Shown: positions 9,027-42,573 of the stretch, piece after piece
How the letters are laid out: the number at the start of each line of letters is the position of its first letter
How positions within the stretch are numbered: the first letter of the stretch is position 1
From: an uncultured Gammaproteobacteria bacterium
Lineage (GTDB): Bacteria; Patescibacteriota; Microgenomatia; Daviesbacterales; UBA10151
Direction: 5' to 3'
Assembly: GCA_964523905.1 (NCBI GenBank)
Contig: CAZFYQ010000005.1
Location: forward strand, 10,299 to 74,298
DNA length: 64,000 bases
Position numbers and translations under genes: made by a program
The notes under the pieces: generated by a model
What the model saw: only the letters and a program-made list of their open reading frames with translations
Databases searched by the model: none
What the model was told of the DNA's origin: nothing

Positions 9027-9093
9027 GTAGTAAATATACCTTTTCGTTGAAATATACACAAGTATTATGTAAAATACTTTCTGGTGTTTATTA

Positions 9094-9167: not shown

Positions 9168-9242
9168 ATTTACCTATTGACAATCAAATTGATTTAGTCT
9201 AAAAAGAAAAAGTAAAACTCCTGCCTATCCTGCTCCCAACTA

Positions 9243-9911
9243 ATGGCTACTAGAGGAAGACCAAAAAAAACTAATACTAAATCCAGCCCTGATTTCTTGG
9301 AAAAAATTTCCCGAGAAACGCAGTCCAATCAATCAAGACTGAGTATGATCTTGGGTGGGTTAATTATTTTAGTAATTGTGGTTTTAATCTTTAATTACTT
9401 TAACAAACCAAAAGCAGAACTAGGTCCTGCTCAACAAACTCAAGCTAATGCTCAACATGATGTCACGCCGGACAATCTTCCCGGTAAATACACTGTTAAA
9501 GATGGTGACACCTTGTTTACCATTGCCGATGCCTATTATAAAGATGGTTATCAATATCCAGTGATTGCTCAGACTAACAACATTGCAAACCCGGATCTTT
9601 TGGAAGCCGGACAGGTTTTAACAATTCCTAAATTACCGGCCTCAGCCATGCAAGAAAATCCTGGTCAAGATCAATCCAGCTTACCCCAAGAACAGGTCAC
9701 CACTGACAATAGCAATACTCCCAATAATGCAACCACCTGGGGACCAACCATCCAAGGTGACAGCTACACAGTAACTGCTGGTGATTGGCTTTCTACAATT
9801 GCCGGCCGGGCTTACGGAGATGTGATGTCTTATCAAAAAATTGCCGATGCCAATGGCATTACTGATCCTAATGTGATTGAAGTTGGCACCGTCTTAAAAA
9901 TTCCCCGCTAA
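9243..9911 (+). CDS. LysM domain peptidoglycan-binding protein (two LysM repeats, N-terminal TM)
   Basis: Two LysM motifs: YTVKDGDTLFTIADAYY...LLEAGQVLTIP and YTVTAGDWLSTIAGRAYG...IEVGTVLKIP. A TM helix lies near the N-terminus. Confidence 0.8.
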   Translation: MATRGRPKKTNTKSSPDFLEKISRETQSNQSRLSMILGGLIILVIVVLIFNYFNKPKAELGPAQQTQANAQHDVTPDNLPGKYTVKDGDTLFTIADAYYKDGYQYPVIAQTNNIANPDLLEAGQVLTIPKLPASAMQENPGQDQSSLPQEQVTTDNSNTPNNATTWGPTIQGDSYTVTAGDWLSTIAGRAYGDVMSYQKIADANGITDPNVIEVGTVLKIPR

Positions 9912-9928
9912 TTTGCTATAGTAGTTAA

Positions 9929-23612: not shown

Positions 23613-24668
23613 TTATCTTACTTTGAGGTTGTTTGCAACAGATGAGAGTAATCCTAAAGACATCAGCGTTGCAATCAAAGAGCTACCGCCATAGGAAATT
23701 AAGGGCAAAGTGATCCCAGTGATGGGCAAAATCCCAATATTCATGCCAATATTAACAAAGATCTGACAAATCAGCATTGAAAAAATTCCAATCACCAGTA
23801 AGAAATTAAAGCTATCATTAACCAGGGACGCCACCCTTAAGCAATAGCCCAGCAAAAAAAGGTAAATTACCAAAATAATTAAAGCGCCGGTAAAACCCAG
23901 CTCCTCAACAGTTGAGGCAAAAATAAAATCAGTCCGGTATTCTGGCAGGAATTGTAAACGTGATTGTGTGCCTCTTCCCAAACCCCGACCAAACAATTGC
24001 CCAGAACCAACAGCAATCGTTGACTGAATTTGATTATAACCTCTACCTAAAGGATCAGACTGCGGTGCAAAAAAACCAATGATTCGGTCTCTTTGATAAG
24101 ACCGCAGAAAAAACCAACCAGCAGGGATAATTAAACTAGCCACTAGTATTAATACGGCAATTTTTTTAACTGAAACTCTGGAGGCAAATAGCATCCCTAA
24201 CCAGATTGCCATCAGTGTTAAGGCTGATCCTAAATCCGGTTGGATAAAAATTAACAGAGCCAAAGGGACGGTAATTAACAAGCTCTTAAAAACATTAGCC
24301 CAGCTTGGTGCCATCCTTGACCAAAAATAAGCTAAGCATAAAATCAGTACAGGCTTGGCAAACTCTGAAGCCTGTACATTAAAAAATCCCAGTGGAATCC
24401 AGCGGATTGCTCCCCGACTTTCAAATCCCCAGAAAAATACTACCAGAAGCAAAAAAATAATGAAAATATACAAGGGTTTTACAAAGCGGGTTAAAACATG
24501 CATATCCAGTTGTGACAAAAAAAAGAAAAACACCAAACCAACCACAGCAAACAGTATTTGTTGAAAAGCAAGAGTTTTGGAAGATGAATAAATTACTAAT
24601 ATTCCAATTGACACTAAGAAAATACTGGATAGAATAGTTGGCAGGCTAAAAAACTTAAGGCTACTCAT
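23613..24668 (-). CDS. SEDS family protein (RodA/FtsW/SpoVE-like peptidoglycan glycosyltransferase)
   Basis: 351 aa with about 10 TM helices. The C-terminal conserved block PITGITLPLISYGGSSL is typical of SEDS proteins. Confidence 0.8.
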   Translation of the reverse strand: MSSLKFFSLPTILSSIFLVSIGILVIYSSSKTLAFQQILFAVVGLVFFFFLSQLDMHVLTRFVKPLYIFIIFLLLVVFFWGFESRGAIRWIPLGFFNVQASEFAKPVLILCLAYFWSRMAPSWANVFKSLLITVPLALLIFIQPDLGSALTLMAIWLGMLFASRVSVKKIAVLILVASLIIPAGWFFLRSYQRDRIIGFFAPQSDPLGRGYNQIQSTIAVGSGQLFGRGLGRGTQSRLQFLPEYRTDFIFASTVEELGFTGALIILVIYLFLLGYCLRVASLVNDSFNFLLVIGIFSMLICQIFVNIGMNIGILPITGITLPLISYGGSSLIATLMSLGLLSSVANNLKVR

Positions 24669-27849: not shown

Positions 27850-29016
27850 CTATCTGTTACTCCGTAAAAATGCGGGAATTTCCAAATCTTCGTCTTCTTC
27901 CTGGTGCTCTTTTTCTTCCTCTACTACATCCTGTGAAGAGGTGGTTTGAACAATTGGGTCATCCTGAACTGGAGGAGTACCAGTGGAAAATCCGCTGGAT
28001 TGTTGCTGACCTAAAGAAGCAGAACCCATGCCAGTGCCAATATATTCGCGCAGTCTTCTTCTGGTTTCATCAAAACCGGTAGCAATCACAGAAATCTTGA
28101 TTTGATCCAACTGGTCTTCTTTAATGGTCGCGCCAAAGATAATGTTAGCATCAGGATCTGCTGCCTGGGCAATAATTTGTGCTGCTTCATTAACCTCTGT
28201 CATGGAAAGATCTGCACCACCCACAATGTTAAACAACACTCCTTTGGCTCCTTCTATGGATACTTCAAGTAAAGGTGAGGCAATGGCCATCCTAGCGGCC
28301 GCAGCAGCTCTGTTTTCTCCGCCAGCCATACCAATACCCATCAAGGCTGATCCGGCATTAGACATGATGGTTTTAACATCAGCAAAATCTACATTAATTA
28401 ATCCCGGCATGGTGATTAAATCAGAAATTCCCTGCACTCCTTGACCAAGTACTGAATCTGCCAACTTAAATGCTTCCTGCAAAGTCATATTTTTTTCAAC
28501 GGATTCTAATAGCCTTTGGTTTGGGATAATAATTAAAGCATCAACCTTATCTTTTAGAGCTTCAACACCTTCTTCAGCCACCACCATTCTTCTTGTCCCC
28601 TCAAAAGAAAATGGCTTGGTCACCACAGCCACAGTCAAAGCACCGATTTGTTTGGCAATTTGGGCTACTATCGGAATAGAACCAGTGCCGGTTCCTCCAC
28701 CCATACCGGCTGTTAAAAAAATCATGTCTGCATCTTGTAAAACGTCTTCCAGCTTTTGAGTCGATTCCTCTGCTGCTTGTTTTCCTACATCAGGGTTACC
28801 ACCAGAACCAAGTCCACGGGTTAAAGTTTCACCAATTTGTACTTTGGTCGGAGACTGGTTATTTAACAAGGCCTGAGCATCGGTATTAACAGCTACAAAT
28901 TCCACACCCTGGATCTGTTGCAATGAAATCATCGAGTTTAAAGAATTTGAACCACCACCACCAAGTCCTACAACTTTAATCTTGGCAAATCTTTGAACAT
29001 CAGGTTTGATCAGCAT
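27850..29016 (-). CDS. ftsZ: cell division GTPase FtsZ
   Basis: Tubulin signature GGGTGTG at residues 106-112, with T4/T7 loops and an acidic C-terminal tail. Confidence 0.95.
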
Positions 29017-29108
29017 ATTTTATGAATAGGCAGAATATAACAAAACTTCATGGGAGTAGCAAGCCCCAATCAGTTCACATGATTGGGGCAAGTCCCAATC
29101 CCAAACAA

Positions 29109-30401
29109 CTATGGCAGTAGTGATTTCACTAAACTAATTCCTTTTTGAATCATGCCTTTAATTGGTAAACTACCGGATAAAACAGGCATTCTCATTTGCG
29201 GCGATGAGCCTTGCTGCGCCCCATATAAAATTAAGCCGGCACCGGTCGCAAAGGAGGGTGAATCAATCTCATCCACCATACCGGATAAACCTTCAGCTTG
29301 ACCAAGTCTGGCTGGAAAACCTAACACATATTTAGCTTGCTCCATGGCCCCAATAGTTTGTCCACCACCCCCACAAATAACCAGTCCTGAGGGAATTTGA
29401 GTACCAAACCCACTTCTTTTAATTTCTTTACCCACATATTTAAAGATTTCCTGCAAACGGGGCCTAATAATTCCATCCACCACTGATTTGGTAGAGATTT
29501 TCTGTACAGATTCTTCTATTCCTAAAGCTTTGGTATCTAAAAATCCTTCTTCTTTTTTCTTGGTCTTTTCCTCAATTGGTTCTAACCCTTCTGCCAAAGC
29601 CGGACTTTTTTGAATTTTACCCAGAGATAATTTAATTTTTTCAGCTGATTCCAGAGAAATCCGAAGACCCACTGCCATGTCTGAGGTTATATGCCTGGCA
29701 CCAATTGGTACTACTGAAGAATAAGCCACTGATCCATCAATAAAGATCACCACACTAGTGGTTTCTCCACCAATATCCACCACCACCACTCCCAATTCTT
29801 TTTCAGTATCAGTTAATACGGCCAAAGATGAGGCAACTCCGGAAAACACCAGCTCCGAGACATCAATGCCGACCTGGGACACACATTTAACCAGGTTTTT
29901 CATGGATGTAGTTGAACCGGTAATAATGTGCGTTTCAGTTTCTAGCCTGACTCCAGTCATACCAATCGGATCTTTAATACCTTCTTGGCCATCAACTGTA
30001 AAAGTTCGAGGGATCACATGTAGAATTTCACGGGATGTTGAAAGAGGTAAAGCTCTGGCCGCATCATTAACTCTTTGAATATCACTTTCTTTGATTTCAC
30101 CTTCTGGTTCAGAAACTGCTACCACTGCATGTTGATTAACACTCTCAATTTGGGGACCACCTAAAGAGATATAAGCTGATGAAATAGAATACCCGGCCAT
30201 CCGCTCAGATGCTTCAACTGATTCGGTAATGGCCCGGACAGCCTCATCAATATCAACCACCTGGTCTTTTCTCACACCCCGTGAGGGAGTACTGGAAACT
30301 CCAATTAAATTAATTTTACCGTTTTCATCAATTGAGGCAATCAGGGTAGCAATTTTTGATGAGCCAACATCGATTCCACAAATTATTCTGTCCTTTGGCA
30401 T
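29109..30401 (-). CDS. ftsA: cell division protein FtsA
   Basis: Actin-like ATPase. CGIDVGSSKIATLI N-terminus, GGG box, 430 aa. Lies immediately upstream of ftsZ. Confidence 0.9.
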   Translation of the reverse strand: MPKDRIICGIDVGSSKIATLIASIDENGKINLIGVSSTPSRGVRKDQVVDIDEAVRAITESVEASERMAGYSISSAYISLGGPQIESVNQHAVVAVSEPEGEIKESDIQRVNDAARALPLSTSREILHVIPRTFTVDGQEGIKDPIGMTGVRLETETHIITGSTTSMKNLVKCVSQVGIDVSELVFSGVASSLAVLTDTEKELGVVVVDIGGETTSVVIFIDGSVAYSSVVPIGARHITSDMAVGLRISLESAEKIKLSLGKIQKSPALAEGLEPIEEKTKKKEEGFLDTKALGIEESVQKISTKSVVDGIIRPRLQEIFKYVGKEIKRSGFGTQIPSGLVICGGGGQTIGAMEQAKYVLGFPARLGQAEGLSGMVDEIDSPSFATGAGLILYGAQQGSSPQMRMPVLSGSLPIKGMIQKGISLVKSLLP

Positions 30402-30404
30402 ATG

Positions 30405-31256
30405 TTATTTTTTTGGAGCAAATTTAACCACGGGTTTATCAAACCGCAGATCGATAAACTCAAGGGTCTTATGATCTATTTTAGCCTGACCGTAAATGAG
30501 TTGTAAAGATGCAATTTGTTCGTTAATTTTATCATCAAGTAAAAAGATCATTTTTGGCGTACTACTTATCAAAAGTATGCTTTTTGAGTAGATTTGAGAT
30601 TCCTTTGGATCAATGCCTAAATTCTTGACTGCAGAAAGAATTTTTAAAGTACTAATAATCAGACTTCCGCTTAAAGTTTGACCTAAACTTAAACTAATGT
30701 CACTAATATATACTCGAGGCGCAACAATTTGTTCAATTTTATTGGAATAGATTACTCCATCTACATCAACCAAAAAACTAGGGCCGGATAAATCATTAAC
30801 TTGCGCCGAGCCAGAAGCCTCAGCACTATCTGTTGCCTCGGCTTGACTAAACTGATCCACTAAATTTGCTGATGCTGTAGCACCTTTTTCACCAACCTTG
30901 GTTAAAATTGCAGCGGCAGTCCGGCCACTAATATTTAATATCACTGTACTTGGAAAATTGCGCGAGATCTCAACCATGCCAACGCATAAAAACTTTGTTT
31001 TTAAATTATTAGCGACTGCAGATTTATTCAGCAAGAAAAAGTTTTGCCCGATGAGTCCTGCTTGATCCATGATTTGCTGCTTACTTGCACAGTCAACTTG
31101 ATGAAGATTTACATTAACTGATTTAATATTTAAAAGTCCAATTCGGTAGATAAAAAATCCTAATCCTAAGATTAAAAGAATAAACAGAAAAAATAAAACT
31201 TTAAATAAACTAAAACGCAAAAATCTTTTTGAATTTGGGCGGCGGTTTCTTCTCAT
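30405..31256 (-). CDS. ftsQ: cell division protein FtsQ/DivIB-like (POTRA)
   Basis: Basic N-terminus and a single TM helix. Call rests mainly on its position between murG and ftsA. Confidence 0.6.
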   Translation of the reverse strand: MRRNRRPNSKRFLRFSLFKVLFFLFILLILGLGFFIYRIGLLNIKSVNVNLHQVDCASKQQIMDQAGLIGQNFFLLNKSAVANNLKTKFLCVGMVEISRNFPSTVILNISGRTAAAILTKVGEKGATASANLVDQFSQAEATDSAEASGSAQVNDLSGPSFLVDVDGVIYSNKIEQIVAPRVYISDISLSLGQTLSGSLIISTLKILSAVKNLGIDPKESQIYSKSILLISSTPKMIFLLDDKINEQIASLQLIYGQAKIDHKTLEFIDLRFDKPVVKFAPKK

Positions 31257-31262
31257 CTAATT

Positions 31263-32345
31263 TTATCCCCCGGCCAATATCACTGTTTCCAAAGCAAGTC
31301 TTTTGGCAGCATCGGGAATAATACTTTTTTTAGCCAGCTTGGCCTGTTTGGTAATTTGCGGTAACTGACCTAGTATTTGTTTAATTTTATCGGTTAAGCT
31401 ACTACCGGATAATTTTGATTGGGGCAAAATTTCTACTAGTCCTAACTCTTTAAAATATCTGGCATTTTTATTTTGCTCATCACCATATAAATAACCAATT
31501 GGAATTACCAAAGCCGGCTTACCAGTATAAGCTAGTTCAGTTAAAGTATTAATACCGGCCCGAGATACCACTAAATCAACTTGACCTAAAACATCTCCCC
31601 ACTCTTTGCCGATCCATTTTTTAACTTGATAACGATCATTAAAGTTTCCCAGCTTTTCTAATCTTTCAAAATCTTGGAATTTACTATCTCCGGTGACATG
31701 AATTACTGATGCTATTTTGGTAAGTTCTTTTAAACCCTCTTCCACAGCCAGATTAATGGCATGCGAACCTTGGTTACCCCCGGTAATTAAAATGACCGGC
31801 ACTTTATTCTTTCTTGGAGTTTGTTTCCATTCCAAAATTTCTTTACGGATAGGATTACCCGAGAAAAAAACTTTCTTTTTATCAAAATGATTTTCTCCGG
31901 GAAAAGACAAGGCAATTTTATCTGCAAAAAAAGCGCTGATTTTATTAGCCAGTCCGGATACTAAAGTTTGTTCATGCACTAAAATTGGAATGGAAAATAA
32001 CCAACCAGCCAAAACAGTTGGCACTGCCACATATCCTCCAAAAGATAAAATCACATCCGGTTGTTCCTTAATAATAAAAAACAGTGCCATCAAAAATCCA
32101 ATTGGAATTTTCAAAAGTGAAGGAATTGTATAAATAGTAAAAGACCGTTGCAAACGACCAGTAACTATAGGCAAAAACTTTACACCCATTCCCGGTAAAA
32201 TTTGCGACTCAGCAGATTTGGCAGAGTCACCCTCCATAGTGGTTTTTCTTCCCACATAAACAATTTCAACATCCGGATATTTTTTAAGTTCTGCAATCAC
32301 TGCCGCAGCTGGCGTAAAATGAGCTCCGGTAATAAGGACCTTCAT
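31263..32345 (-). CDS. murG: undecaprenyldiphospho-muramoylpentapeptide beta-N-acetylglucosaminyltransferase
   Basis: MKVLITGAHFTPAAAVIAEL N-terminus, GT28 fold, ITGGNQGS-type and GYVAVPTVLA motifs. Confidence 0.85.
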   Translation of the reverse strand: MKVLITGAHFTPAAAVIAELKKYPDVEIVYVGRKTTMEGDSAKSAESQILPGMGVKFLPIVTGRLQRSFTIYTIPSLLKIPIGFLMALFFIIKEQPDVILSFGGYVAVPTVLAGWLFSIPILVHEQTLVSGLANKISAFFADKIALSFPGENHFDKKKVFFSGNPIRKEILEWKQTPRKNKVPVILITGGNQGSHAINLAVEEGLKELTKIASVIHVTGDSKFQDFERLEKLGNFNDRYQVKKWIGKEWGDVLGQVDLVVSRAGINTLTELAYTGKPALVIPIGYLYGDEQNKNARYFKELGLVEILPQSKLSGSSLTDKIKQILGQLPQITKQAKLAKKSIIPDAAKRLALETVILAGG

Positions 32346-32382
32346 GTATTAATTATAACAAGATTGAATCTGGATTATTGGA

Positions 32383-32733
32383 TTATACAAACAATTTACT
32401 GATGCTTTGTAAAATCTTGTGCTTAATTGCTGGATTTAGTTGACCAACAGCATTTTTAATAATAGTTGTATCAGCGGTGAATAATTTATCCGGTCTAACA
32501 AAACTTGTAACTGGTAATTTACCCTTAGAAAAATCGTCAGACTCAATACGAATAGCGGTCTTACTTGTATAGGATTTTGAGGTAATTTGGCATAAAATAA
32601 GATTACCAAATTCAACTTTAGCCAGGACTAGCGCTGGACGAACTTTTTGGCCCTTTAAATTTGAAAAGGGAAATGTGACTAAAACAACCGTACCTACTCG
32701 TAGAGTAGCTTTGCTCACTGTAGACTGGCCCAT
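32383..32733 (-). CDS. mazF: type II toxin-antitoxin toxin, PemK/MazF family (mRNA interferase)
   Basis: RVGTVVLVTFPFSNLKGQKVRPALVL matches the PemK/MazF consensus (G.V..V.F.P..G.E...RPA.V). Length 116 aa. Confidence 0.75.
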   Translation of the reverse strand: MGQSTVSKATLRVGTVVLVTFPFSNLKGQKVRPALVLAKVEFGNLILCQITSKSYTSKTAIRIESDDFSKGKLPVTSFVRPDKLFTADTTIIKNAVGQLNPAIKHKILQSISKLFV

Positions 32734-32951
32734 GCTTCATCCTCTTCAGGTCGATTCCAATCGGCAGCAAGTGCTTTTTCTGATAGTAAAGCACTGGCTT
32801 CAGTAATGCTCTTAACAGGTGCTGAAACAATTCTTATTTCTCCTTTTTTTACCTGCAACTCAACTTGTTCACCTAGACCACTTTCGCTAAGAACAGGCTT
32901 TGGTATACGTATGCCTCGGGAATTTCCTATCTCGATAATTGTAGTAATCAT
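32715..32951 (-). CDS. mazE: type II antitoxin, AbrB/MazE/SpoVT family
   Basis: MITTIIEIGNSRGIRIPKPVL is the swapped-hairpin AbrB/MazE motif. Overlaps mazF by 19 nt. The ORF track allows an earlier start at 33008, but the promoter geometry favours 32951. Confidence 0.65.
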   Translation of the reverse strand: MITTIIEIGNSRGIRIPKPVLSESGLGEQVELQVKKGEIRIVSAPVKSITEASALLSEKALAADWNRPEEDEAWASLQ

Positions 32952-32989
32952 TGTAGTCACATTGTAGTCACATATAATATAATTGTCAA
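32950..32989 (-). promoter_or_regulatory. putative mazE promoter/operator: -35 TTGACA, 17-nt spacer, -10 TACAAT, overlapping an 11-nt tandem direct repeat
   Basis: Minus strand reads TTGACA (plus 32984-32989), 17 nt, TACAAT (plus 32961-32966). The repeat attgtagtcac occurs twice (32950-32960 and 32961-32971); the second unit holds the -10 and the first overlaps the ATG. Confidence 0.4.
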
Positions 32990-33211
32990 GCCACTTGACG
33001 GCTGACATATAATCTTATACGCTAATTGTATGGACAATAATTCACCTCAGGATCAAAATACTGATTATTCATCTAGCAACTCAGTTACAATCCCTAGCGA
33101 TCCTCAAGCAAATATTCCTACATCTGTTCCTGTGACATCCGGGCCGACCAGTACTCCCGAAACATTCCGTAAGAAAAAACCAACTGTAGTATATGCGGGA
33201 TATTAACTCTT

Positions 33212-33820
33212 ATGCCTGAAAAACAAGGTCCGGAATTAAGTAAACAATATGGTACTGATGTTATTAGTCTCACCAGATCTGAATATTTGGACAGTTTTAT
33301 TCATAATTTAACTACCCCAAAAGAACAGGAAGGCGTTCAGGAAGCTCTAGATCTTGCAATCAAAGAAGCACCGGCTGATGCCGATTTCTGTGTGATTAGT
33401 GACCAGGTAGGAGACCGGCTATCCGCCCGCCATTTATTCCGAGCGGCTGCAGAAGCTTACGAATTTTCGTATGTGCAGGAGGCGGGTTATACTGATGCTC
33501 AAGTCCAACACGCAGAAAAATATGCCAAAGCAGTTGATAGTTTCATTAAAGATGATAGTGATTTGATACCAAAGGCCGAAAAAGAAGGATGGCTGTTAGC
33601 AAAACAATCGACGATCGATGCGGTCAATTTGTGTTTGATTAAGGATCATGACTATCGATGGAGCATGGAGTTTCGTAGACAAGTTAATGAAAAATTTCCT
33701 GATTTCCAGCCTGAACCAAGTGCAGCTTTTGTTCGTACCAATGCTTTAGCAGAATCAAGAGACATGGCTACCGAAGCTACTAAGTTTGTTCAAGCATTAG
33801 CAGAAAGACAAACCAACTAG
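33212..33820 (+). CDS. hypothetical protein (higher GC, opposite strand, inside the dcw cluster)
   Basis: 202-aa ORF with GC visibly around 45-48% against the local background. No recognisable family. Confidence 0.45.
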   Translation: MPEKQGPELSKQYGTDVISLTRSEYLDSFIHNLTTPKEQEGVQEALDLAIKEAPADADFCVISDQVGDRLSARHLFRAAAEAYEFSYVQEAGYTDAQVQHAEKYAKAVDSFIKDDSDLIPKAEKEGWLLAKQSTIDAVNLCLIKDHDYRWSMEFRRQVNEKFPDFQPEPSAAFVRTNALAESRDMATEATKFVQALAERQTN

Positions 33821-34918
33821 CTATCCTTGGTGACGCGAAATATTTAGTAAAATTCCCACGGCTGTTAGATTGGCAACCAGAGCTGAGCCGCCATAGGAAA
33901 TAAAAGGCAGCGGAACTCCGGTTAAAGGAAGCAGCGCTGTCATAGAGGATAAGTTAATCACCACCTGAATCCCCAACCAGCAGGTCAATCCCAAAGCCAG
34001 AATTTTTCCAAAAGGATCACTACAATTTTGAGCAATCTTAAAACCACGGAGGATCAATATTGCAAATAAACAAATTAGAAAAAAAGATCCTAAAAAACCC
34101 AGCTCTTCCCCCACAATGGCAAAAATAGAATCAGTAGAAACTTCCGGAATATATTCAAACTTTTGTCTGGAGTGTCCCAATCCCAACCCTAACCACCCAC
34201 CTGACCCTAAAGCAATTAATACCTGCAGTATATGATAAGTAGAACCTTGCGGATCGGAAAAAGGATCTAAAAACGCTAAAATTCTCTTACTTCTGTAGCT
34301 GGAGGTAAAAATTAATACCGCTAAAGCACTTAACCCAGTGGGTATACTTACTAAAATTTGCCAAAGTGGTGCCCCTGATGCAAAATACAATAAAGAAGCA
34401 GTTGCTACAAAGACAATAGCGGACCCCAAATCCCTTTGTAAAACTCCAGTAATAAGTGTTACTCCTAAAACGACTACTAAAAAAGGCGTAAGTCTGGCTT
34501 TTTTTTCAAACATAGCAGCTAAAAAAATTACTCCGGTTAACTTAATAATTTCGGTTGGTTGAATAGTAATCGGCCCGAATTTTAGCCAACGGTGAGCACC
34601 TCCGCCAGAAATCCCAAATCCGGGAATAAATACCGCCAGTAACATTAAAAAAGAGACTAAAATTAAAGGCAGGGCAAAGGTGCGAAACTTTTTGTAATCA
34701 AATCCAATAAAAAAAATCATTGAAGCAAAACCCAAACCCACCCAAATTACTTGCTGTCTAATATAATAGTAGCTGTCATTATAATCTTTTAAGCCCTGGA
34801 CTACGGAAGAGTCATAAACCATGATTAGCCCAAAAACAACTAACCCCAGCACCACTGTTAAAAGTGGTAGATCTAAGGTTCTTTTTTGTGAGTGGAAGGC
34901 AGTGTTGATACGCTTCAT
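33821..34918 (-). CDS. ftsW: cell division protein FtsW (SEDS)
   Basis: 365 aa, 10 TM. C-terminal LPLTGVPLPFISYGGSAL block. Sits between mraY and murG. Confidence 0.85.
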   Translation of the reverse strand: MKRINTAFHSQKRTLDLPLLTVVLGLVVFGLIMVYDSSVVQGLKDYNDSYYYIRQQVIWVGLGFASMIFFIGFDYKKFRTFALPLILVSFLMLLAVFIPGFGISGGGAHRWLKFGPITIQPTEIIKLTGVIFLAAMFEKKARLTPFLVVVLGVTLITGVLQRDLGSAIVFVATASLLYFASGAPLWQILVSIPTGLSALAVLIFTSSYRSKRILAFLDPFSDPQGSTYHILQVLIALGSGGWLGLGLGHSRQKFEYIPEVSTDSIFAIVGEELGFLGSFFLICLFAILILRGFKIAQNCSDPFGKILALGLTCWLGIQVVINLSSMTALLPLTGVPLPFISYGGSALVANLTAVGILLNISRHQG

Positions 34919-35925
34919 CTGGCGCTAGATAAAAGAGCAATCCAAAGACCAATCATCGCAAACAGTCCCTGAGCTAACCAAAATCTGGTGACGATTTTTG
35001 GCTCTTCCCAGCCCATGTATTTAAAATACATATGAATTGGGGCCACTGGGAAAAGTTTTTTATGCAAAAATCTCTTTGATAAAATCTGAAGTAAAGATGA
35101 TCCGCTAATAATCACAAACATTCCACCAATTATTGCCAGTGCTAAAATTTTACCGGTTAATAGTCCCACCACCCCAAGAGTTGCACCAAAGGCAAATGAC
35201 CCGGCATCTCCTAGAAAAATCCGCGCCGGCCAAATATTAAAATACAAAAAGGCAAATAGCGTTCCAATCCAAATCCCAATAAATGAAGCCAAAGTTAAGT
35301 CCAAAGACCGAGATGCTAGCGCCAAAAGCGCAAATAAACAAATTAACAAAAGTCCTCCGGACAAGCCATCAAGACCATCAGAAATATTGTAAGCATTGGC
35401 AAAAGAAATAATGACAAAAGCCGCTAAAGGAATATACCAGCCGTGAATTACAAAATTGCCAATACCGGAAATGTAGATATTATTTAGTCCCACTGTAAAA
35501 TACAAAGCCCCTCCAATTGCTAAAGCCAACAGAGTTTGAATAACTAACATTCTTGTGCGACTTAGCCCAAACATTTTACCGGTTCGCTTAGTTAAAATAA
35601 ACTTCACATCATCCATTAAACCAAGTAGCCCAAATGAAGATAGGGTCAACAGCAAAATTCGAAGACTGATGCTAAGTCCACCGTTAAAAATACCATATCC
35701 TGCACTGATCAAAAGTAACATAATAATTAACAAGATTCCTCCGCCAGAAGGAGTTGTTAAGTCAGATTTCATTAAACGGTCATGAATCGGGGTCTCTGAT
35801 TTTGTCAAATCTGTTGACTGCCTTTGAAAGCGGTTTTTTAAATAATAAAGCAAATCAATAAACGGCACCATGCAAACAGCAGTGGCAGCAAATGATAATA
35901 AAACCAGTCCTAACAGTTGGGTCAT
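34915..35925 (-). CDS. mraY: phospho-N-acetylmuramoyl-pentapeptide transferase
   Basis: Polytopic membrane protein with NAYNISDGLDGL and FLGDAGS motifs of the MraY/WecA family. Confidence 0.9.
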   Translation of the reverse strand: MTQLLGLVLLSFAATAVCMVPFIDLLYYLKNRFQRQSTDLTKSETPIHDRLMKSDLTTPSGGGILLIIMLLLISAGYGIFNGGLSISLRILLLTLSSFGLLGLMDDVKFILTKRTGKMFGLSRTRMLVIQTLLALAIGGALYFTVGLNNIYISGIGNFVIHGWYIPLAAFVIISFANAYNISDGLDGLSGGLLLICLFALLALASRSLDLTLASFIGIWIGTLFAFLYFNIWPARIFLGDAGSFAFGATLGVVGLLTGKILALAIIGGMFVIISGSSLLQILSKRFLHKKLFPVAPIHMYFKYMGWEEPKIVTRFWLAQGLFAMIGLWIALLSSAR

Positions 35926-35942
35926 CTTTACTCGAAAGTCAT

Positions 35943-37076
35943 TTAGACTTTCTCCTCCTTTTTCTTGGCAATTCTTTTAACTACCTCATCTAATCTTACA
36001 GCATGTTGACCCTTAACTAAAACAACGTCGCCTTTTCCTAAGGTTTTCAAAAGCTTACTGACAATTTGAGAATTTTGTAAATTCGTTTCCACCTTCTCCT
36101 CCCAAAAACCCAATCTTTTTAATTCATCGGCAATGAAAATCGTATCCCCCTGGCCTAGAAAACATAGATCAATTTTTTCTTTATAAATTTTTTGTGCCAA
36201 ATGACGGTGGATTTCTTCTGAAAAGCTGCCTAAATCTCGTAATTCCCCTAGCACTAAAATCCGTCTTCTGGCGCTAATTTGTAATAATGTATCAATCGAG
36301 GCTTCCACATCAGCCGGCGAAAAAGCATGCGTGTCATCCAAGATCACTGAGCCGTTTGGTCCATAAAAAGGCTCCATTTGATGCTCAACCGGCTCCAGCT
36401 CCTCCAAGGCAATTTTGATCCTAGTTAATGGAATTTGGTTAAGGATCCCCAAAGCAGCTGCTGCTAAGGCTGAGTAAACATATTGCATGCCCAACAATTT
36501 GAAATTTACCCTGACTCTTTCCACTCCATAATTTAGTTCAAAAGTAGTTCGAAAATTCTCGATTAAAATATTGCCTGCCCAGACCAAACAATTATCAGGA
36601 TCAGTACCAAAAAATACCACCTGCCCTTGACCTTCTTTAACTAACTTTTTACTAGCCGGATCATCAAAATTTAAAATCGCCACCCCTTTTTCACCAATTC
36701 CGGCAATTAATTTTTGCTCTTCCTCAATAATTTCTTCCAACCCACCTAAATGATCACTATGTGCATAGGCAATTTTAGTAACAATCACTGTTTGCGGCTT
36801 GATTAAGCGAAGATATGAGTCGATTTCCCCTTTTTTATGAATACCCATTTCCAAAATTACTTTTTTTATCGAAGGATTAAGATTTAATAAGGCCTGCGGC
36901 AGTGCCGAGTGCGGACTGGCATTTAATTTAGTGGTTAAAGTTTTGTATTTTTTTCTTAAAATAGCCTCACAAGCCTGTACACAGACGGTTTTGCCAATTG
37001 ATCCGGTAACACCGATAAATAGCTCAGGAGAATAAAACTTGGCATATTGTCTGGCCATGAAAGAGAAAACACCCAT
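35943..37076 (-). CDS. Mur ligase family protein (MurF-like by motif and position), short form
   Basis: P-loop IGVTGSIGKTV, a Mur ligase central domain and a C-terminal domain. It is 377 aa and lacks the usual N-terminal domain. Lies upstream of mraY. Confidence 0.6.
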   Translation of the reverse strand: MGVFSFMARQYAKFYSPELFIGVTGSIGKTVCVQACEAILRKKYKTLTTKLNASPHSALPQALLNLNPSIKKVILEMGIHKKGEIDSYLRLIKPQTVIVTKIAYAHSDHLGGLEEIIEEEQKLIAGIGEKGVAILNFDDPASKKLVKEGQGQVVFFGTDPDNCLVWAGNILIENFRTTFELNYGVERVRVNFKLLGMQYVYSALAAAALGILNQIPLTRIKIALEELEPVEHQMEPFYGPNGSVILDDTHAFSPADVEASIDTLLQISARRRILVLGELRDLGSFSEEIHRHLAQKIYKEKIDLCFLGQGDTIFIADELKRLGFWEEKVETNLQNSQIVSKLLKTLGKGDVVLVKGQHAVRLDEVVKRIAKKKEEKV

Positions 37077-37079
37077 TGA

Positions 37080-38336
37080 CTAATTTCCTCTTTCAATCTG
37101 GGCCCCTAAACTCTGCAGTTTTTCAACAACTTCATCATAACCGCGTTCAATTAACTCTGCCTGATTGATCACACTCTCGCCTTTAGCTATTAAAGCAGCT
37201 AAAACCAAAGCCATGCCAGCCCGAATATCCGGAGTTTCCAGGTTCCTACCATGTAGCTTAGTTGGGCCGGAAACTAACACCCGATGAATATCTGCCAGGG
37301 TAATCGCAGCTCCCATGGAAATTAATTTATCAACAAAAAACATCCGTGATTCATACATCCAGTCATGACATAAAGTTACACCCTTAGACTGCGTTGCCAA
37401 AACAATAGCCACACTCATTAAATCAGTGGGGAATCCCGGCCACAAATTGGTTACTAGTTTATGGGGAGCTTTTAATCTTTCAGCATCAACCACCACTTTA
37501 TCCCCATCTGGTTTAATGCGCACACCAAATCGCTTTAAAGGTTCTAACACCGGTTCTAGATCGGTGCCATCCAGTCCGGAAATTGTAATCTGACCTCCAG
37601 TGATGGCCGCTGCCACAGCATAAGTCCCTACTTCCACATAGTCCACCCCGATTTTAAATTTAGTACCATTTAGCTTTTTTACTCCTTGAATTTTTAAGCT
37701 GTCAGTACCAATGCCCTCAATTTGAGCCCCCATTTGTTGTAACATCCGACATAAATCAACAATATGCGGTTCTTTGGGGCAATTTTTCAAACTAACAGAT
37801 TTTTCCCCAAGAACTGAGGCTAATATTAAGTTTTCCGTAGCAGTAACTGATGCCTCTGATAAAAAAATGTGGTGTTTACTGGAAGTATTTTCATTAAACT
37901 TTAAAGTATATTTTAGATCTTCTTTTTTTAGCTCTGCTCCTAAGGCCTTAAAGCCTTCTAAATGAGATCCGATACTCCTTTGCCCGATCACATCTCCACC
38001 TGGATGATAAAAACAAACTTTTCCCATTCTGGCTAAAATACTACCGACCAACACCATTGACCCGCGTAGTTTAGTCATTAACTCTTTGGGCAAAGTGGTC
38101 TGGCGAATCGAAGAGGCTTCTATTTTCAAAGTAGTCTTATCCTTGGTTACTTTCACTCCTAGCTTATTAAGGATTTCCAAATAAACCTGGGTATCTTTTA
38201 GATTAGAGATATTTTCCAGAATTACCTCCTCTTCCGTTAGCAAGGCAGCAGAAACACAGGGAAAAACCGAGTTTTTGTTGCCGGACATGATTACTTCTCC
38301 TTTTAACTGATTCCCACCTTTTATTGTATATTTCAT
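37080..38336 (-). CDS. murA: UDP-N-acetylglucosamine 1-carboxyvinyltransferase
   Basis: 418 aa with an EPSP-synthase fold. MKYTIKGGNQLKGEVIMSGNKNS...CPKEPHIVDL matches MurA. Confidence 0.9.
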   Translation of the reverse strand: MKYTIKGGNQLKGEVIMSGNKNSVFPCVSAALLTEEEVILENISNLKDTQVYLEILNKLGVKVTKDKTTLKIEASSIRQTTLPKELMTKLRGSMVLVGSILARMGKVCFYHPGGDVIGQRSIGSHLEGFKALGAELKKEDLKYTLKFNENTSSKHHIFLSEASVTATENLILASVLGEKSVSLKNCPKEPHIVDLCRMLQQMGAQIEGIGTDSLKIQGVKKLNGTKFKIGVDYVEVGTYAVAAAITGGQITISGLDGTDLEPVLEPLKRFGVRIKPDGDKVVVDAERLKAPHKLVTNLWPGFPTDLMSVAIVLATQSKGVTLCHDWMYESRMFFVDKLISMGAAITLADIHRVLVSGPTKLHGRNLETPDIRAGMALVLAALIAKGESVINQAELIERGYDEVVEKLQSLGAQIERGN

Positions 38337-38935
38337 TACTGTTTTGCTTTAACCCGAAAAACTGCTGATAAAACAATGTGTTTTTTCGGATTTAGGCCGT
38401 CAGCATCAATTTCTTCAATTTCTGAGGCCTGATCCAATACTTTAATACTTTTTGCCCTTGATTGCAAAAATTTTGATAAAAAAAGATTCCCCCCAATGCT
38501 ACCCGGGATTCCAATAAACTCTGCTGTTGATAATCCTGTTACATCAAGATATTCACAGAATTTGCCAATACTAACTCCGGATTCTACCTCTACCATGGCC
38601 TCTTCTACTCCGATGCCAAACTTTGACACTTTACCCTTGACTGAGACTGTTTTAATATTTTTAGTACGGTTTTTAATCACCAATCCTTTAAATCCAAAAT
38701 CAGAGATTAAAATTTTACTGCCAGTGCCAAAAACAAAAATTGGCAAATTTAATTCCCTAGACATGGTTATAATTTTTACCAGTTCTGAGGTAGTAAAACT
38801 AATAAAAAATAAATCCGCCGGCCCCCCGGCTCTTAAAGCTGTATACTCTTTTAAAGGCTCGTTAAATTTAAACCGATCCTTCCCGAAATAATCAACTATC
38901 AATTTGTATTTGTTATCCACGCCCCACCCTCTCAA
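38336..38935 (-). CDS. murB: UDP-N-acetylmuramate dehydrogenase (MurB)-like, unusually short (199 aa)
   Basis: FAD-binding domain motifs YTALRAGGPADLFF, LPIFVFGTGSKILISD and GIPGSIGGN. The ORF then ends after a MurB-like C-terminal tail (IVLSAVFRVK) with no central substrate-binding domain. Confidence 0.55.
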   Translation of the reverse strand: MRGWGVDNKYKLIVDYFGKDRFKFNEPLKEYTALRAGGPADLFFISFTTSELVKIITMSRELNLPIFVFGTGSKILISDFGFKGLVIKNRTKNIKTVSVKGKVSKFGIGVEEAMVEVESGVSIGKFCEYLDVTGLSTAEFIGIPGSIGGNLFLSKFLQSRAKSIKVLDQASEIEEIDADGLNPKKHIVLSAVFRVKAKQ

Positions 38936-40109
38936 TTACCTCCTTATCCGACCAGGGAATTTCCTTTTTCCCATCCAAATTCATAGATTTTTCATGCCCC
39001 TTACCAAATACACCCACAATATCACCTTTTTTTGCCAATTTATTGATGGCCAGATCAATTGCCCCTTCCCTGTCTTCAATCACAAAGAAATTAATTCCAT
39101 CTTTGGCTCCGGCTTTTTTAGCTCCTTGGGTGATTTGTTGGTTAATTTCTTTGATCTGACCACGCGGATCCACAGCGGTTACTATTACGACATTAGCCAG
39201 CTTCATCGCAATTTCCCCCATCGGGATTCTTTTTCCCGGATCTCTGTCTCCTTCAGCACCAATAATGGCAATCACTCTACCGGAAGTCTGAGTACGCAGT
39301 GTTTTTAAAGCATTTTCCAAAGCATTGGGAGTATGAGCAAAATCCACTATTACTTTAACTCCTTTTTTGGCTTTTACTTCTTCCATCCGGCCGGTTAAAC
39401 CACTAAAGTTTTCCAAAGCTTTTTGGGCAATCTGACGATTTATTCCTAATACAAAACTAACTGCCATGGTGGCCAAAGCATTTTCCAAATTATAATCTCC
39501 GGAAATTTTTAGGTTTAATTTCAAATCTTTTTGATTAAAATCTCCTTTATCTAAACTAAAAGTAATGATTTTTCCCTTAATTTGGGCAATTTCTTTAATA
39601 GAATAATTGACTACCGCAGTTTTAGCATTTTCCGTAAGTTTCAATTTGGTTTTAACATAATTTTCAAAGGTTTTATGATAATCCAAGTGTTCTTGAGTAA
39701 TATTAGTAATTACCCCCACTTCGAACTTAATTCCGGCAAAACGGTGTTGGTCCAATCCATGAGAAGTCACTTCCAAAACCATATATTCATCACCATTTTT
39801 CACTGCAGCATTTAGAAACTGCTGGATCATAAACGGGCTGGGTGAAGTCACATGAAACCCGGTGTCATATTCTTTTCCGGCAATTACAGCATTAATCGTA
39901 GACACCATTGACACCTTTTTCCCAGCCGCCTTAAGCACTTGGTAAATCATGTTGGTCGTAGTAGTCTTACCATCAGTGCCAGTAACCCCAATAATCTTGA
40001 TCTTACTAGCTGGGCTCCCATATCGCAGATTAGCAATTGCAGCCTTAGGCCGATGATACAAATCATTAATAACCTCCTGAGACAAAAACGAACGTATTGT
40101 TTTCTTCAT
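38913..40109 (-). CDS. Mur ligase family protein (MurE-like), short form
   Basis: IIGVTGTDGKTTTTNMI P-loop, VLEVTSHGL and NITQEHLDYH motifs. It is 398 aa and follows ftsI in dcw order. Confidence 0.6.
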   Translation of the reverse strand: MKKTIRSFLSQEVINDLYHRPKAAIANLRYGSPASKIKIIGVTGTDGKTTTTNMIYQVLKAAGKKVSMVSTINAVIAGKEYDTGFHVTSPSPFMIQQFLNAAVKNGDEYMVLEVTSHGLDQHRFAGIKFEVGVITNITQEHLDYHKTFENYVKTKLKLTENAKTAVVNYSIKEIAQIKGKIITFSLDKGDFNQKDLKLNLKISGDYNLENALATMAVSFVLGINRQIAQKALENFSGLTGRMEEVKAKKGVKVIVDFAHTPNALENALKTLRTQTSGRVIAIIGAEGDRDPGKRIPMGEIAMKLANVVIVTAVDPRGQIKEINQQITQGAKKAGAKDGINFFVIEDREGAIDLAINKLAKKGDIVGVFGKGHEKSMNLDGKKEIPWSDKEVIERVGRG

Positions 40110-40171: not shown

Positions 40172-40762
40172 ATGAAAAATACTGAAAGATTGATAGAGAT
40201 ATTAGGCCTGATTGGTATTCCACTACTGGGATCGACGTTACTAATAAATCTCCTTGCTCTTAATATCGCTCCATATGTAGGCTTATCAATCCTTTTTGGG
40301 ATCAGTACAATTATTAAAACAAAGAAATGGTCAACATATACAAAATTACTTGTAATAATCTTGGCACTATTTATATTCAATATAACCCCCTATTTCCGAC
40401 CAGGGGACTATACAATCTTTGCTGGTGGGGCTGTGCTATTTGGATGCATCAATCAGTCTCCTAACTCTTTAGGATTAGGATGGCCAGCAGCATATGTAAA
40501 ATATTCACTTGAAAGAGGAACCATTTTAGTTGGTTCATCTAGTCTTAAATCTAACTGTGAATATAAAAAAATTGATACAGGGACATTTTTTCCACAAAAT
40601 CCCCAATGGTTAATTTTTGATGTTCTTTTCTCACTTTCATGGTTACCTTTATTCTATAGTATTTTTAAAGGGGGTTCTAACACCAAACTTATTTACTTTC
40701 TGTTAAGTCCTTTGTTTATAATTGTTTTAATAAAAACAATATTCCTCTTCCATATATTATAA
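40172..40762 (+). CDS. hypothetical polytopic membrane protein
   Basis: 196 aa with about 5 TM helices. It is on the opposite strand inside the dcw cluster. Confidence 0.4.
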   Translation: MKNTERLIEILGLIGIPLLGSTLLINLLALNIAPYVGLSILFGISTIIKTKKWSTYTKLLVIILALFIFNITPYFRPGDYTIFAGGAVLFGCINQSPNSLGLGWPAAYVKYSLERGTILVGSSSLKSNCEYKKIDTGTFFPQNPQWLIFDVLFSLSWLPLFYSIFKGGSNTKLIYFLLSPLFIIVLIKTIFLFHIL

Positions 40763-40793
40763 TTTTCGCGCCAATAAGTGGCTAACCTAATAA

Positions 40794-40835
40794 TTTATTC
40801 TGTGGGGGCGATTTTGTAGTAGTTAAATAGTTGTC
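40794..40835 (+). repeat. 42-nt direct repeat copy 1: duplicate of the ftsI 3' terminus (copy 2 at 42574-42615 is the actual ftsI 3' end)
   Basis: tttattctgtgggggcgattttgtagtagttaaatagttgtc versus tttattctgtgggggcgattttgtagtagttaaataattgtc, 41/42 identical. Copy 2 encodes ...QLFNYYKIAPTE* on the minus strand. Confidence 0.75.
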
Positions 40836-40876
40836 AGCTTCCAACCCCAGGGGTTGAATACGTTCAAACCTCAGGA
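40836..40876 (+). repeat. REP-like 41-nt element, copy C, 20 nt downstream of the transposase stop
   Basis: agcttccaaccccaggggttgaatacgttcaaacctcagga. Confidence 0.65.
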
Positions 40877-40895
40877 AATAAGCCTAAAAGAATTC

Positions 40896-41567
40896 TTAAA
40901 TCAAATGCCTGATTTGCGCTAAAGTTCTCTGGTATTCAGCCTGATCGAAAACAAACTCCTTATATTTATCCTCGTTTCCTATTAAACCTAAGATTAAATC
41001 ACTATTAATGAACTGGTAAACTCCTGAGCTCTTTTTTATGTAGTTTTTATATGAAGACCAAATATAATCTTCTAAACTATCTATCTTTACAAGGTAGTCG
41101 GTGGATGGATTCAAATGTATATACCTACTAACATGTAGCAGTTGTTCATCCGTAACAATTCTGACTCCCTTAAACATTGGTTGAAATAATGGGCCGCTCC
41201 TTTCAGATTTAATATTGAAATATTTGGCATATCCATTTTGTAAATTACTGATAAATTTAGCTATACCCTTTTCACTTATTTGTTTTAGGAGAAAATGAAA
41301 ATGATTATTCATTAAGCAGAAAGCCAAAATTTTTATATGAATATCACCTTCCTTCTGTAGACCAGCAAAAATCTTTTCCCTATCCTCTCTGGGAATTTTT
41401 TTAAAATGCGAAAAACTAACCGGGGTATTTTGAAAACGATAATAATCTATTAACTCAATAAAGCGTTGGAAATCTCTTGGTGTCGAAAAAATGGGTAAAC
41501 GAGCAACTCCTCTATTAAATACATGATAAATTTGATCCTGAGCTAGCGGTGTGCTCCTGTAAGGCAT
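40896..41567 (-). CDS. IS200/IS605-like Y1 (HUH) transposase, RAYT/COG1943-like
   Basis: N-terminal YHVFNRGVARLPIFSTPRDFQRFIELI, HUH motif NNHFHFLL and catalytic-Tyr region SRYIHLNPS (RAYT Y-I-H-x-N-P). Start chosen at the ATG at 41565-41567; the ORF track extends to 41690 through REP-related sequence. Confidence 0.65.
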   Translation of the reverse strand: MPYRSTPLAQDQIYHVFNRGVARLPIFSTPRDFQRFIELIDYYRFQNTPVSFSHFKKIPREDREKIFAGLQKEGDIHIKILAFCLMNNHFHFLLKQISEKGIAKFISNLQNGYAKYFNIKSERSGPLFQPMFKGVRIVTDEQLLHVSRYIHLNPSTDYLVKIDSLEDYIWSSYKNYIKKSSGVYQFINSDLILGLIGNEDKYKEFVFDQAEYQRTLAQIRHLI

Positions 41568-41588
41568 TAATTCAATCTTATCCTTAGG

Positions 41589-41621
41589 TTGGAAGCTAGT
41601 CAACACCGGGTGTTGGAAGCC
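41589..41621 (-). repeat. inverted partial REP copies in the transposase 5' flank
   Basis: ttggaagct (41589-41597) and caacaccgggtgttggaagcc (41601-41621) are the reverse complement of the REP 5' half (agcttccaaccccgggtgttg) with 3 changes. They are inverted relative to copy C. Confidence 0.5.
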
Positions 41622-41679
41622 AAAATAATTCTCTGTAATTTGTAAGATTATAGGTTTTTGAGTATAATTTGCCCTTAAT

Positions 41680-42573
41680 ATGATTGACAATTTAGCAGAC
41701 CTTCCAAGAACTGAAAGAGACGGTATCTTTATTGATTACACAATCAGTGATCAAAAAGTAGTAACTCTAGTAAGAAGCTCTATAAATGAAACCGTTATGC
41801 ACGGGTATAACCAACTCCGAGATTGGGAACCTGAAGATAGAATAGAATCAAATTGTCCTTTATATCGTGTAGTAAATGCAGAGCAATCAACAGGTAGTTT
41901 AGACCAAATGATCCGCGTTGGTACGGAATCACAGAGAATTGCACTAGCTGTCTTAGAATCTTATGGACTTAATTTAGATTCACCTGATAATCTAAGCGAT
42001 TACAATGAGGCCAGAGGTCGAGAAAAATTGACTTTTCGCTCTCAATTAGTTGTGGGATTATCTTTTACTCGTCTAGCATTCTACGAAAATCACCCACCAA
42101 CTGCAAAATATGCAGAATGGATGGCTAATTTCTGGGTGCCATTGAGCGACACTGAAACTAAGAAGAGCACCGACGAAAAAGCATATCAAACTCTGCACCA
42201 GATTGCCTCCATTGTTCCTCCTGAGCTAATACAAATGGCTAATGAAGCTGATTTAGCTTTACCTGAAGGACTTCTTAAACATAGGTTCGGTCCTGATTTA
42301 AGCAATGACGAAAGAATTCAATTTGCCAAGTTCCTTTTTGATAGATATCTTTGGTGGGAAGACTCTAGAGGCTCTAGTGAAAGAAAAAGAATTTTTATCA
42401 AAGAAATAGGTATTCCAGCAGCAATAACCGGTAATATCCCCCAAGATCGAAAAAAAGATGAATTAATCAGCAGATTTGGTGGACTAATTGAGGTAGCAAA
42501 AATGTTTAATACACATTTTATTATATTTAGAGAGCGTCACGGATATTCTGTTTCTGAGAATATTTCTACCTAA
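41680..42573 (+). CDS. hypothetical protein (cargo of the transposase island)
   Basis: 297-aa ORF divergent from the transposase. Its stop is 1 nt from the ftsI stop on the opposite strand. No recognisable family. Confidence 0.5.
   Translation: MIDNLADLPRTERDGIFIDYTISDQKVVTLVRSSINETVMHGYNQLRDWEPEDRIESNCPLYRVVNAEQSTGSLDQMIRVGTESQRIALAVLESYGLNLDSPDNLSDYNEARGREKLTFRSQLVVGLSFTRLAFYENHPPTAKYAEWMANFWVPLSDTETKKSTDEKAYQTLHQIASIVPPELIQMANEADLALPEGLLKHRFGPDLSNDERIQFAKFLFDRYLWWEDSRGSSERKRIFIKEIGIPAAITGNIPQDRKKDELISRFGGLIEVAKMFNTHFIIFRERHGYSVSENIST

Follow-up and report, generated by a model that had tools for sequence, protein, structure and literature searches.

Background

The closest known relatives of the genes described here are the toxin-antitoxin (TA) pairs MazE-MazF (chpA) of Escherichia coli, ChpBI/ChpBK and Kid/Kis (PemI/PemK). 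In each of these the antitoxin gene comes first, the toxin gene follows and overlaps it, and the products measure about 80 and 115 amino acids (aa). A pair built in this way is present in a 64,000-nucleotide (nt) stretch of DNA from an uncultured bacterium (contig CAZFYQ010000005.1 of assembly GCA_964523905.1, positions 10,299 to 74,298), here called the window. Together with orf202, a gene of a very rare family, and orf58, a doubtful open reading frame (ORF), it sits between ftsW and murG, in the division and cell wall (dcw) cluster.

The likeness to E. coli MazE-MazF extends to the proteins and to their predicted control. MazE of the window has a probable AbrB-type N-terminal DNA-binding domain and an acidic C-terminal tail of the form DWxxPxxxExW, the toxin is a basic member of the PemK family while the antitoxin is acidic, and a repeated putative operator covers the pair's own promoter. 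There are also differences. HMMER finds no link between the window toxin and any solved MazF, so divergent is its sequence; the distance from promoter to start codon suggests a leaderless mRNA; and in the sampling at hand the family does not extend beyond Microgenomates and other members of the Patescibacteria. The window pair, furthermore, is found inside a dcw cluster. No directly relevant literature was found on TA systems in Patescibacteria, or on dcw interruptions in bacteria of the Candidate Phyla Radiation (CPR).

The reading we prefer, with a probability of roughly 0.7, is that the DNA separating ftsW from murG, about 1.46 kb, is lineage-specific and consists of two unrelated parts. 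One is a canonical type II MazEF cassette, the other is orf202, perhaps with orf58, and both lie at a hotspot that tolerates insertions.

The mazEF cassette

The toxin gene mazF lies at 32383-32733 on the minus strand and encodes 116 aa. An initial annotation of this DNA had placed a PemK/MazF-type toxin here, and a profile search agrees: Pfam family PF02452 (PemK_toxin) is matched over profile positions 2-109 of 109 with an E-value of 2.3e-11 and 44.3 bits, above the cutoff of 23.1. PHROG 1936, 'MazF-like growth inhibitor', is matched at 4.3e-15. The computed isoelectric points (pI) are 10.25 for MazF and 4.88 for MazE, which is the basic and acidic charge pattern of a toxin and its antitoxin.

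Residues R32, P33, T51 and S52 are invariant across 28 members of the MazF family. The catalytic loops of MazF proteins carry an Arg in (K/H)-x-R-P-x-(L/V)-V-L and a Thr or Ser in (I/T)-T-(S/A/Q). The catalytic residues themselves are R29 and T52 in E. coli, and R25 and T48 in Bacillus subtilis. An hhalign comparison pairs KVRPALVL of the window protein with GHRPAVVL of E. coli MazF at 8% probability. On this low-probability alignment, R32-P33 and T51-S52 would occupy the catalytic Arg and Thr sites of characterised MazF. The protein is a predicted endoribonuclease.

The antitoxin gene mazE, also on the minus strand, runs from 32951 to 32715 and encodes 78 aa with a predicted AbrB/SpoVT fold. 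Its start follows from an alignment of orthologues, since all of them begin MITTIIEIGNSRG. A longer ORF of 97 aa, starting at 33008, was considered and set aside in favour of the ATG at 32951. The -35 box of the promoter falls inside that longer ORF, and the conservation of the cassette DNA starts only there. The initial annotation was thus right about an antitoxin that overlaps the toxin gene by 19 nt, and wrong about where it starts.

By itself the MazE sequence falls below the Pfam cutoff for PF04014 (MazE_antitoxin; the scores are given below). A profile of seven orthologues matches a solved protein of the AbrB/MazE/SpoVT family, 7d2n, with an E-value of 2e-5 over residues 2-61, and the orthologue in locus L086 has a precomputed weak match to PF04014. 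Together with the sub-cutoff Pfam match, this favours membership in the AbrB-SpoVT family. The structures 7d2n, 7d2p and 7d2q are the best solved relatives of MazE, and have in common with it the swapped-hairpin motif GNS-x-x-(I/L)RIPK. The alignment to 7d2n covers the N-terminal domain only, however; the toxin-binding tail does not align. This tail reads DWNRPEEDEAW, and its residues D64, W65, P68, E69 and W74 are invariant in the seven orthologues. Over its whole length the single MazE sequence can be aligned, though weakly (E 0.6), to that of E. coli MazE (1mvf, 1ub4), which places ADWNRPEEDEAW against IDWGEPKDKEVW, the C-terminus of the E. coli protein.

The layout is that of a type II TA operon: antitoxin first, overlapping genes, a promoter of its own and repeats over that promoter. 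The overlap covers 32715-32733. The 3' end of mazE contains GAGGA, a ribosome-binding motif for mazF, and given this motif and the overlap we propose that translation of mazF is coupled to that of mazE. The promoter (32961-32989, minus strand) has the boxes TTGACA (32989-32984) and TACAAT (32966-32961), 17 nt apart. With 11 of 12 positions, it is the top promoter match within 31000-35500, and six cassettes, drawn from different genomes, all keep both boxes unchanged. Between the -10 box and the ATG of mazE there are 9 nt, without a Shine-Dalgarno motif; the mRNA may therefore be leaderless or nearly so.

A repeat search found two exact tandem repeats of 11 nt at 32949-32970, which span the -10 box and the start codon. 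They read CATTGTAGTCA on the plus strand and TGACTACAATG on the minus strand, and each has TGT...ACA dyad ends. Their positions are kept in other cassettes as ATGTnnnTACA-ATGTAATTAC. They form a putative MazE operator, at which the antitoxin may bind and regulate its own gene.

An alignment of six cassettes, the one in the window and five from other genomes, is conserved from the -35 box through the mazF stop codon, and the flanks cannot be aligned. This makes the pair, with its promoter, an autonomous cassette that measures about 607 nt (32383-32989). At its upstream edge, overlapping the -35 box, is a 6-bp hairpin (GTCAAG-CCA-CTTGAC, 32985-32999), a terminator-like match on the minus strand. 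This hairpin is specific to the window and is not kept in other cassettes.

Just past the mazF stop, within 32346-32382 on the minus strand, there is a tandem duplication of 8 nt, TAATCCAA-TAATCCAG, of which the first copy contains the stop codon. A junction scar and slippage are both conceivable as its origin; no matching copy was seen at the far end of either cassette or insert. An Rfam scan of 32200-34000 (E ≤ 1) gave no matches.

Searches found 822 homologues of MazF, the best 120 of them at 69-86% identity. The named ones come from Daviesbacteria, Levybacteria or Patescibacteria. Seven mazEF cassettes were retrieved from elsewhere in Microgenomates, each with a 79-aa antitoxin gene and a 19-nt overlap, and all in different contexts. 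One is upstream of ychF-rpsF-ssb-rpsR, one between ATP synthase genes and leuS, one after or beside a gene for a bifunctional penicillin-binding protein (PBP), one between rpsG and fusA in the str operon (rpsL-rpsG-fusA) and one near a toxin gene of the ParE/YafQ family; the other two contexts are again distinct. None of the seven is at the ftsW-murG junction, and none is beside an orf202 homologue. The cassette family appears to move as a unit among Microgenomates. Viral contigs held no relatives of the MazF family or of the orf202 family, and so no evidence for a phage vehicle.

The str operon case (L086/L087:3957-5672) consists of a mazEF pair of the same family, a 67-aa ORF, a GNAT acetyltransferase gene and a small GreA-N-like ORF, which together split rpsG from fusA. 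Here too, in the genome of a relative, a small islet interrupts a gene linkage of high conservation.

orf202 and the doubtful orf58

The gene orf202 is at 33212-33820 on the plus strand, as initially annotated, and encodes a soluble, acidic protein of 202 aa (pI 4.75). It is convergent with ftsW at zero spacing: the stop codons of the two genes abut (TAG/CTA, 33818-33823). In the window only about 0.02 ORFs of at least 202 codons are expected by chance. The codon-usage score of orf202 is 0.320 (z -0.18) against a host mean of 0.337, and the other five frames are strongly negative. For these reasons orf202 is a genuine, host-adapted gene.

It had been described as visibly higher in GC than its surroundings, and this does not hold up. 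The GC content is 0.417, against a mean of 0.380 (standard deviation 0.027) for 58 window genes, a z-score of +1.3. This is below both ftsZ (0.432) and ftsA (0.421). At third codon positions the GC content (GC3) is 0.305 (z -0.27). The excess is found in first codon positions, and therefore reflects amino-acid composition. The GC z-scores of mazF and mazE are -0.9 and +1.4. Compositional foreignness was not found, whether by GC, GC3 or codon usage for orf202 or by GC for mazF and mazE.

The description of orf202 as an orphan was nearly right. It has no match in Pfam, NCBIfam, PADLOC, PHROG or the PDB, the last searched with a profile. Three distant homologues do exist, however. They came from an exhaustive HMMER search of 1.84 billion representatives, are of similar length (P0122, P0123 and P0125) and are 24-28% identical to orf202, with E-values from 2e-12 to 3e-6. 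A fourth match was repetitive and was discarded as spurious. A word-indexed search returned only orf202 itself, and a profile search from the four-member alignment found no further members. The family is thus tiny and uncharacterised, with four clusters among the 1.84 billion representatives. Its invariant residues are D58, C60, S63, G67, E81, K131, C141, K144 and Y148. A single-sequence AlphaFold2 (AF2) model had a mean confidence (pLDDT) of 37 and was unusable, and all that can be said of the product is that it is predicted to be a cytoplasmic protein.

The homologues are found in settings that have nothing in common. One has a VTT-domain gene on one side and, on the other, the gene of a methyltransferase DNA-binding domain protein; another is encoded on a contig made up of small ORFs without known family. 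None of the three has mazEF beside it. The contig of P0122 (L091:1-3785) carries eight co-directional ORFs without a Pfam match, and the product of one ends in a low-complexity tail rich in Thr and Ser. The contig has the look of mobile or phage-like DNA, but no relative turned up among viral contigs.

Directly upstream of orf202, at 33030-33206 on the plus strand, is orf58, with 58 low-complexity residues. Its codon-usage score of 0.017 is like that of non-coding DNA (z -3.4 against host genes), and it matches no family in Pfam, NCBIfam, PADLOC or PHROG. A 59-aa ORF that precedes P0122 in L091 has the same position and was considered as its counterpart. This was rejected, with a BLASTP E-value of 0.98.

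The ftsW-murG junction in related genomes

Relatives of the window's FtsW in species-representative genomes are nearly all from Candidatus Daviesbacteria, or from other metagenome-assembled genomes of Microgenomates and Patescibacteria, with a top identity of 80%. The host is therefore a CPR bacterium, and its genome can be called Daviesbacteria-like, within Microgenomates. The comparison set has 80 loci, among them 65 Daviesbacteria-like loci with both ftsW and murG, and 22 of the junctions were inspected closely.

The two genes are normally close together. The gap is at most 161 nt in 50 of the 65 loci, and in 9 of the 22 inspected junctions the ftsW stop and the murG start overlap as ATGA. 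In the window the distance from ftsW stop to murG start is 1,475 nt, and contains mazF and mazE on the minus strand and orf58 and orf202 on the plus strand. Judged by the empty junctions of relatives, the whole insert of about 1.46 kb is at 32361-33820, from the ftsW stop to the -10 box of murG.

No homologue of mazE, mazF or orf202 was found in any of the 80 loci. In a neighbour-joining tree of concatenated MraY, FtsW and MurG, the sister of the window (L003, with a spacer of 21 nt) and the surrounding subclade all have empty junctions. The insert is therefore a lineage-specific gain, and its initial description as acquired has held.

The implied rarity of such an event has not. Inserts of more than 300 nt occur at 15 of 65 ftsW-murG junctions, against 2 of 66 for mraY-ftsW and 0 of 62 for murG-ftsQ. 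The fifteen span 354-1,778 nt. The ftsW-murG junction is a recurrent insertion hotspot in this lineage.

Ten of the fifteen inserts hold a gene for an IS200-like Y1 transposase of 225-247 aa (PF01797, 2.6e-12), divergent from murG. These are the inserts of L009, L010, L011, L017 (9090-10867, for example), L021, L022, L025, L028, L034 and L053. The Y1 copies are 65-79% identical to the one in L017. The cargo beside ftsW varies, and includes a HAD hydrolase, an NAD epimerase, a YbaK-type editing domain, an AAA kinase and LysE. In the host tree the carriers are dispersed, a pattern suggestive of site-specific gain and loss. A further locus, L024, has a remnant of the Y1 gene (5276-5374) in an ftsW-murG gap of 161 nt, with 56% identity over residues 172-205, and this is evidence of decay after insertion.

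The window insert resembles these islets of IS200/IS605-type Y1 (HUH) transposases in that it is at the same site and of similar size (the islets are 0.8-1.8 kb). It differs in that the junction is without a Y1 gene, and in that no Y1 islet carries mazEF or orf202 as cargo. A tblastn search of the window with the junction Y1 proteins matched only 40950-41567 and nothing in 32346-33820, so the insert holds neither a Y1 gene nor a remnant of one.

A strong hairpin, AAGGTGTATCCTT ... AAGGATACACCTT, is present in L017 between the Y1 gene and murG (10745-10790). It is reminiscent of the subterminal hairpins of IS200/IS605 elements, or of those of repetitive extragenic palindromic (REP) sequences.

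The genomes L016 and L017 are very close. L017 has an islet with Y1 and HAD genes and L016 has an empty junction. Compared over 8900-11200, identity is 97% up to the end of ftsW and 74% in murG, so the junction coincides with a recombination breakpoint. Use of the two as a near-isogenic pair to define the ends of the element was rejected, since the two differ by the edge of a recombined stretch rather than by a clean insertion.

Origin of the insert

The 15 nt directly ahead of murG (32346-32360, minus strand) are the retained ancestral spacer between ftsW and murG, and consist of TGT-TATAAT (32360-32352) and TAATAC, followed by the murG ATG. The first of these is an extended -10 box, 6 nt ahead of the start codon. 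Of the 13 inspected relatives in which ftsW and murG do not overlap, 6 (L002, L003, L005, L013, L029 and L039) likewise have a TATAAT at a distance of 6-7 nt upstream of the ATG of murG. Probably murG, and with it ftsQAZ, has a leaderless promoter of its own. Upstream inserts would therefore not cut off the downstream division genes, and this is probably why the junction tolerates insertion.

Under the two-part account, then, the dcw cluster would already have been transcriptionally divisible at the -10 box of murG, which would account for the recurrent insertions at the junction. Into it would have come, as one part, the 607-nt cassette with its strong sigma-70-type promoter and the two 11-nt operator repeats over -10 box and start codon. 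Acidic MazE dimers would bind the operator through their AbrB-type N-terminal domain, and the Trp-containing C-terminal tail of MazE would neutralise the basic MazF. Upon degradation of MazE, MazF, with its conserved Arg32 and Thr51/Ser52, would cleave RNA and arrest growth. The other part would be the divergently oriented orf202, host-adapted and of a very rare family, perhaps with orf58. We infer that the two parts were acquired independently.

Several observations count against this account, or limit it. Within the insert there are no flanking repeats, no recombinase and no transposase, and a search for direct or inverted repeats marking its ends gave matches at chance level only. With the closest relative only 80% identical in FtsW, the timing and order of the mazEF and orf202 acquisitions are constrained only loosely. 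The match of MazE to PF04014 (E 1e-4, 22.6 bits) is just under the cutoff of 24.7, and leaderless transcription in CPR bacteria is proposed from spacing alone. In hhalign comparisons with the MazF proteins of E. coli and B. subtilis, the window MazF reaches a probability of only 8-11%, and PDB searches with the single sequence and with a profile reached no solved MazF. A MazF protein is expected to adopt an SH3-like barrel (the CcdB/MazF fold); the AF2 model of the window MazF is unusable at a pLDDT of 39.8, because the alignment behind it is too shallow, with 28 sequences that are 68-84% identical to the query. Finally, the junction between mazF and murG is outside the span of both independent assemblies discussed below.

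The initial annotation saw here a small acquired module that the TA pair may stabilise. On such a reading mazEF, orf58 and orf202 would have arrived together, with the TA pair keeping the island in place by post-segregational killing, or addiction. The genes are indeed contiguous and fill the junction exactly, and no relative was found with only one of the two parts as an intermediate. Also, the mazE promoter is back to back with a promoter-like TAGTCA-18-TATAAT on the plus strand (32954-32983), so that MazE could co-regulate both sides. Yet the conservation of the cassette ends at its -35 box, which makes it autonomous. It occurs without an orf202 homologue in all seven other contexts, just as the orf202 homologues occur without mazEF, and there is no compositional island signature. 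Addiction, moreover, makes sense for elements which, like plasmids, can be lost whole, and there is no sign of excision here. A single module is accordingly unlikely.

In a different scenario, murG-ftsQ-ftsA-ftsZ would now be expressed by read-through from the promoter of mazEF, because transcription of ftsW collides with the convergent orf202 that abuts it. Expression of the late division genes would then be tied to an autoregulated TA promoter. Both mazF and murG are on the minus strand, with 37 nt from the stop codon of the former to the start of the latter, and no terminator-like site was found between them in 32346-32382; transcription that begins at the TA promoter could continue into murG. 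The gene after mazF is co-directional in 6 of 8 contexts, the window counted. This is expected anyway in strand-biased CPR genomes, however, and murG keeps its conserved -10 box and does not need the TA promoter. Such regulatory co-option seems distinctly improbable as an account of the locus.

A broader version joins this co-option to the Y1 islets, and draws on a second islet in the dcw cluster of the window, at 40172-42573, between the ftsI-type PBP gene and a Mur ligase gene. It has an IS200-like Y1 gene on the minus strand (40896-41690; PF01797, 2.6e-7), flanked on the opposite strand by ORFs of 196 aa (40172-40762) and 297 aa (41680-42573) without a family match. This transposase is a paralogue of the junction Y1 proteins, 33% identical, and lies 7 kb from the ftsW-murG junction of the window. 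In most relatives the ftsI and ligase genes are adjacent; some nine have inserts of 0.8-1.9 kb, and L033 has a Y1 gene there. Conceivably, both dcw junctions of Daviesbacteria (ftsW-murG and ftsI-Mur ligase) are dedicated landing sites for small islets of variable content, serviced by a lineage-specific recombinase of the IS200/RAYT-like Y1 type, with the mazEF promoter co-opted for murG-ftsQAZ. This is a long shot. If true, it would mean a TA-gated division operon in an ultra-small episymbiont.

That the arrangement is ancestral, with the genes lost in other lineages, is effectively refuted: only the absence of recognisable insertion scars speaks for it, while it needs many independent and precise losses, leaving 50 of 65 relatives compact, the ATGA overlap restored in 9 of the 22 inspected junctions, the window's own subclade wholly empty and no homologue of any of the genes in 80 loci.

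An assembly artefact is hardly credible either. The source is a metagenome-assembled genome, into which foreign DNA might have been joined chimerically, and the junction of mazF and murG is present in the window alone. But the per-run Logan assemblies SRR9179562 and SRR9179560, which are independent, are 100% identical to the window over 32489-36127 and 33076-35071, respectively. They reproduce the order mazF-mazE-orf58-orf202-ftsW-mraY, and with it the junctions of ftsW with orf202 and of orf58 with mazE. Codon usage is host-like, and the ends of the flanking genes are intact.

Surrounding genes

The dcw cluster is on the minus strand of the window, as seen from the ORF list and Pfam matches. 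It contains an ftsI-type PBP gene (42575-44284), the Mur ligase gene (38913-40109), a gene for a murB-like FAD-binding protein (38336-38935), murA (37080-38336), a murF-like ligase gene (35943-37076), mraY (34915-35925), ftsW (33821-34918), murG (31263-32345) and ftsQ, ftsA and ftsZ (27850-31256). The two genes that flank the insert are as initially annotated: ftsW matches PF01098 at 2.7e-103, and murG matches PF03033 and PF04101.

A second gene of the FtsW/RodA/SpoVE family is found at 23613-24668 (PF01098, 2.8e-90), downstream of ileS and about 3 kb beyond ftsZ. This is presumably rodA.

Significance

As such, this is one more MazEF pair of a well-known kind, and the direct gain is small. 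More interest attaches to the by-products: the lineage-wide hotspot at the junction, the islets with Y1 genes, and orf202 with its family of four. The link between ftsW and murG is tightly coupled, with an ATGA overlap in many relatives, and has nonetheless been broken repeatedly in one CPR lineage; the -10 box of murG offers a concrete reason why this may be tolerated.

The work also defines a compact and portable MazEF cassette of 607 nt, complete with promoter and putative operator, which is widespread in Microgenomates and directly testable. The orf202 family and the junction Y1 transposase family are candidates for follow-up, as accessory genes that are retained in very small genomes likely matter.

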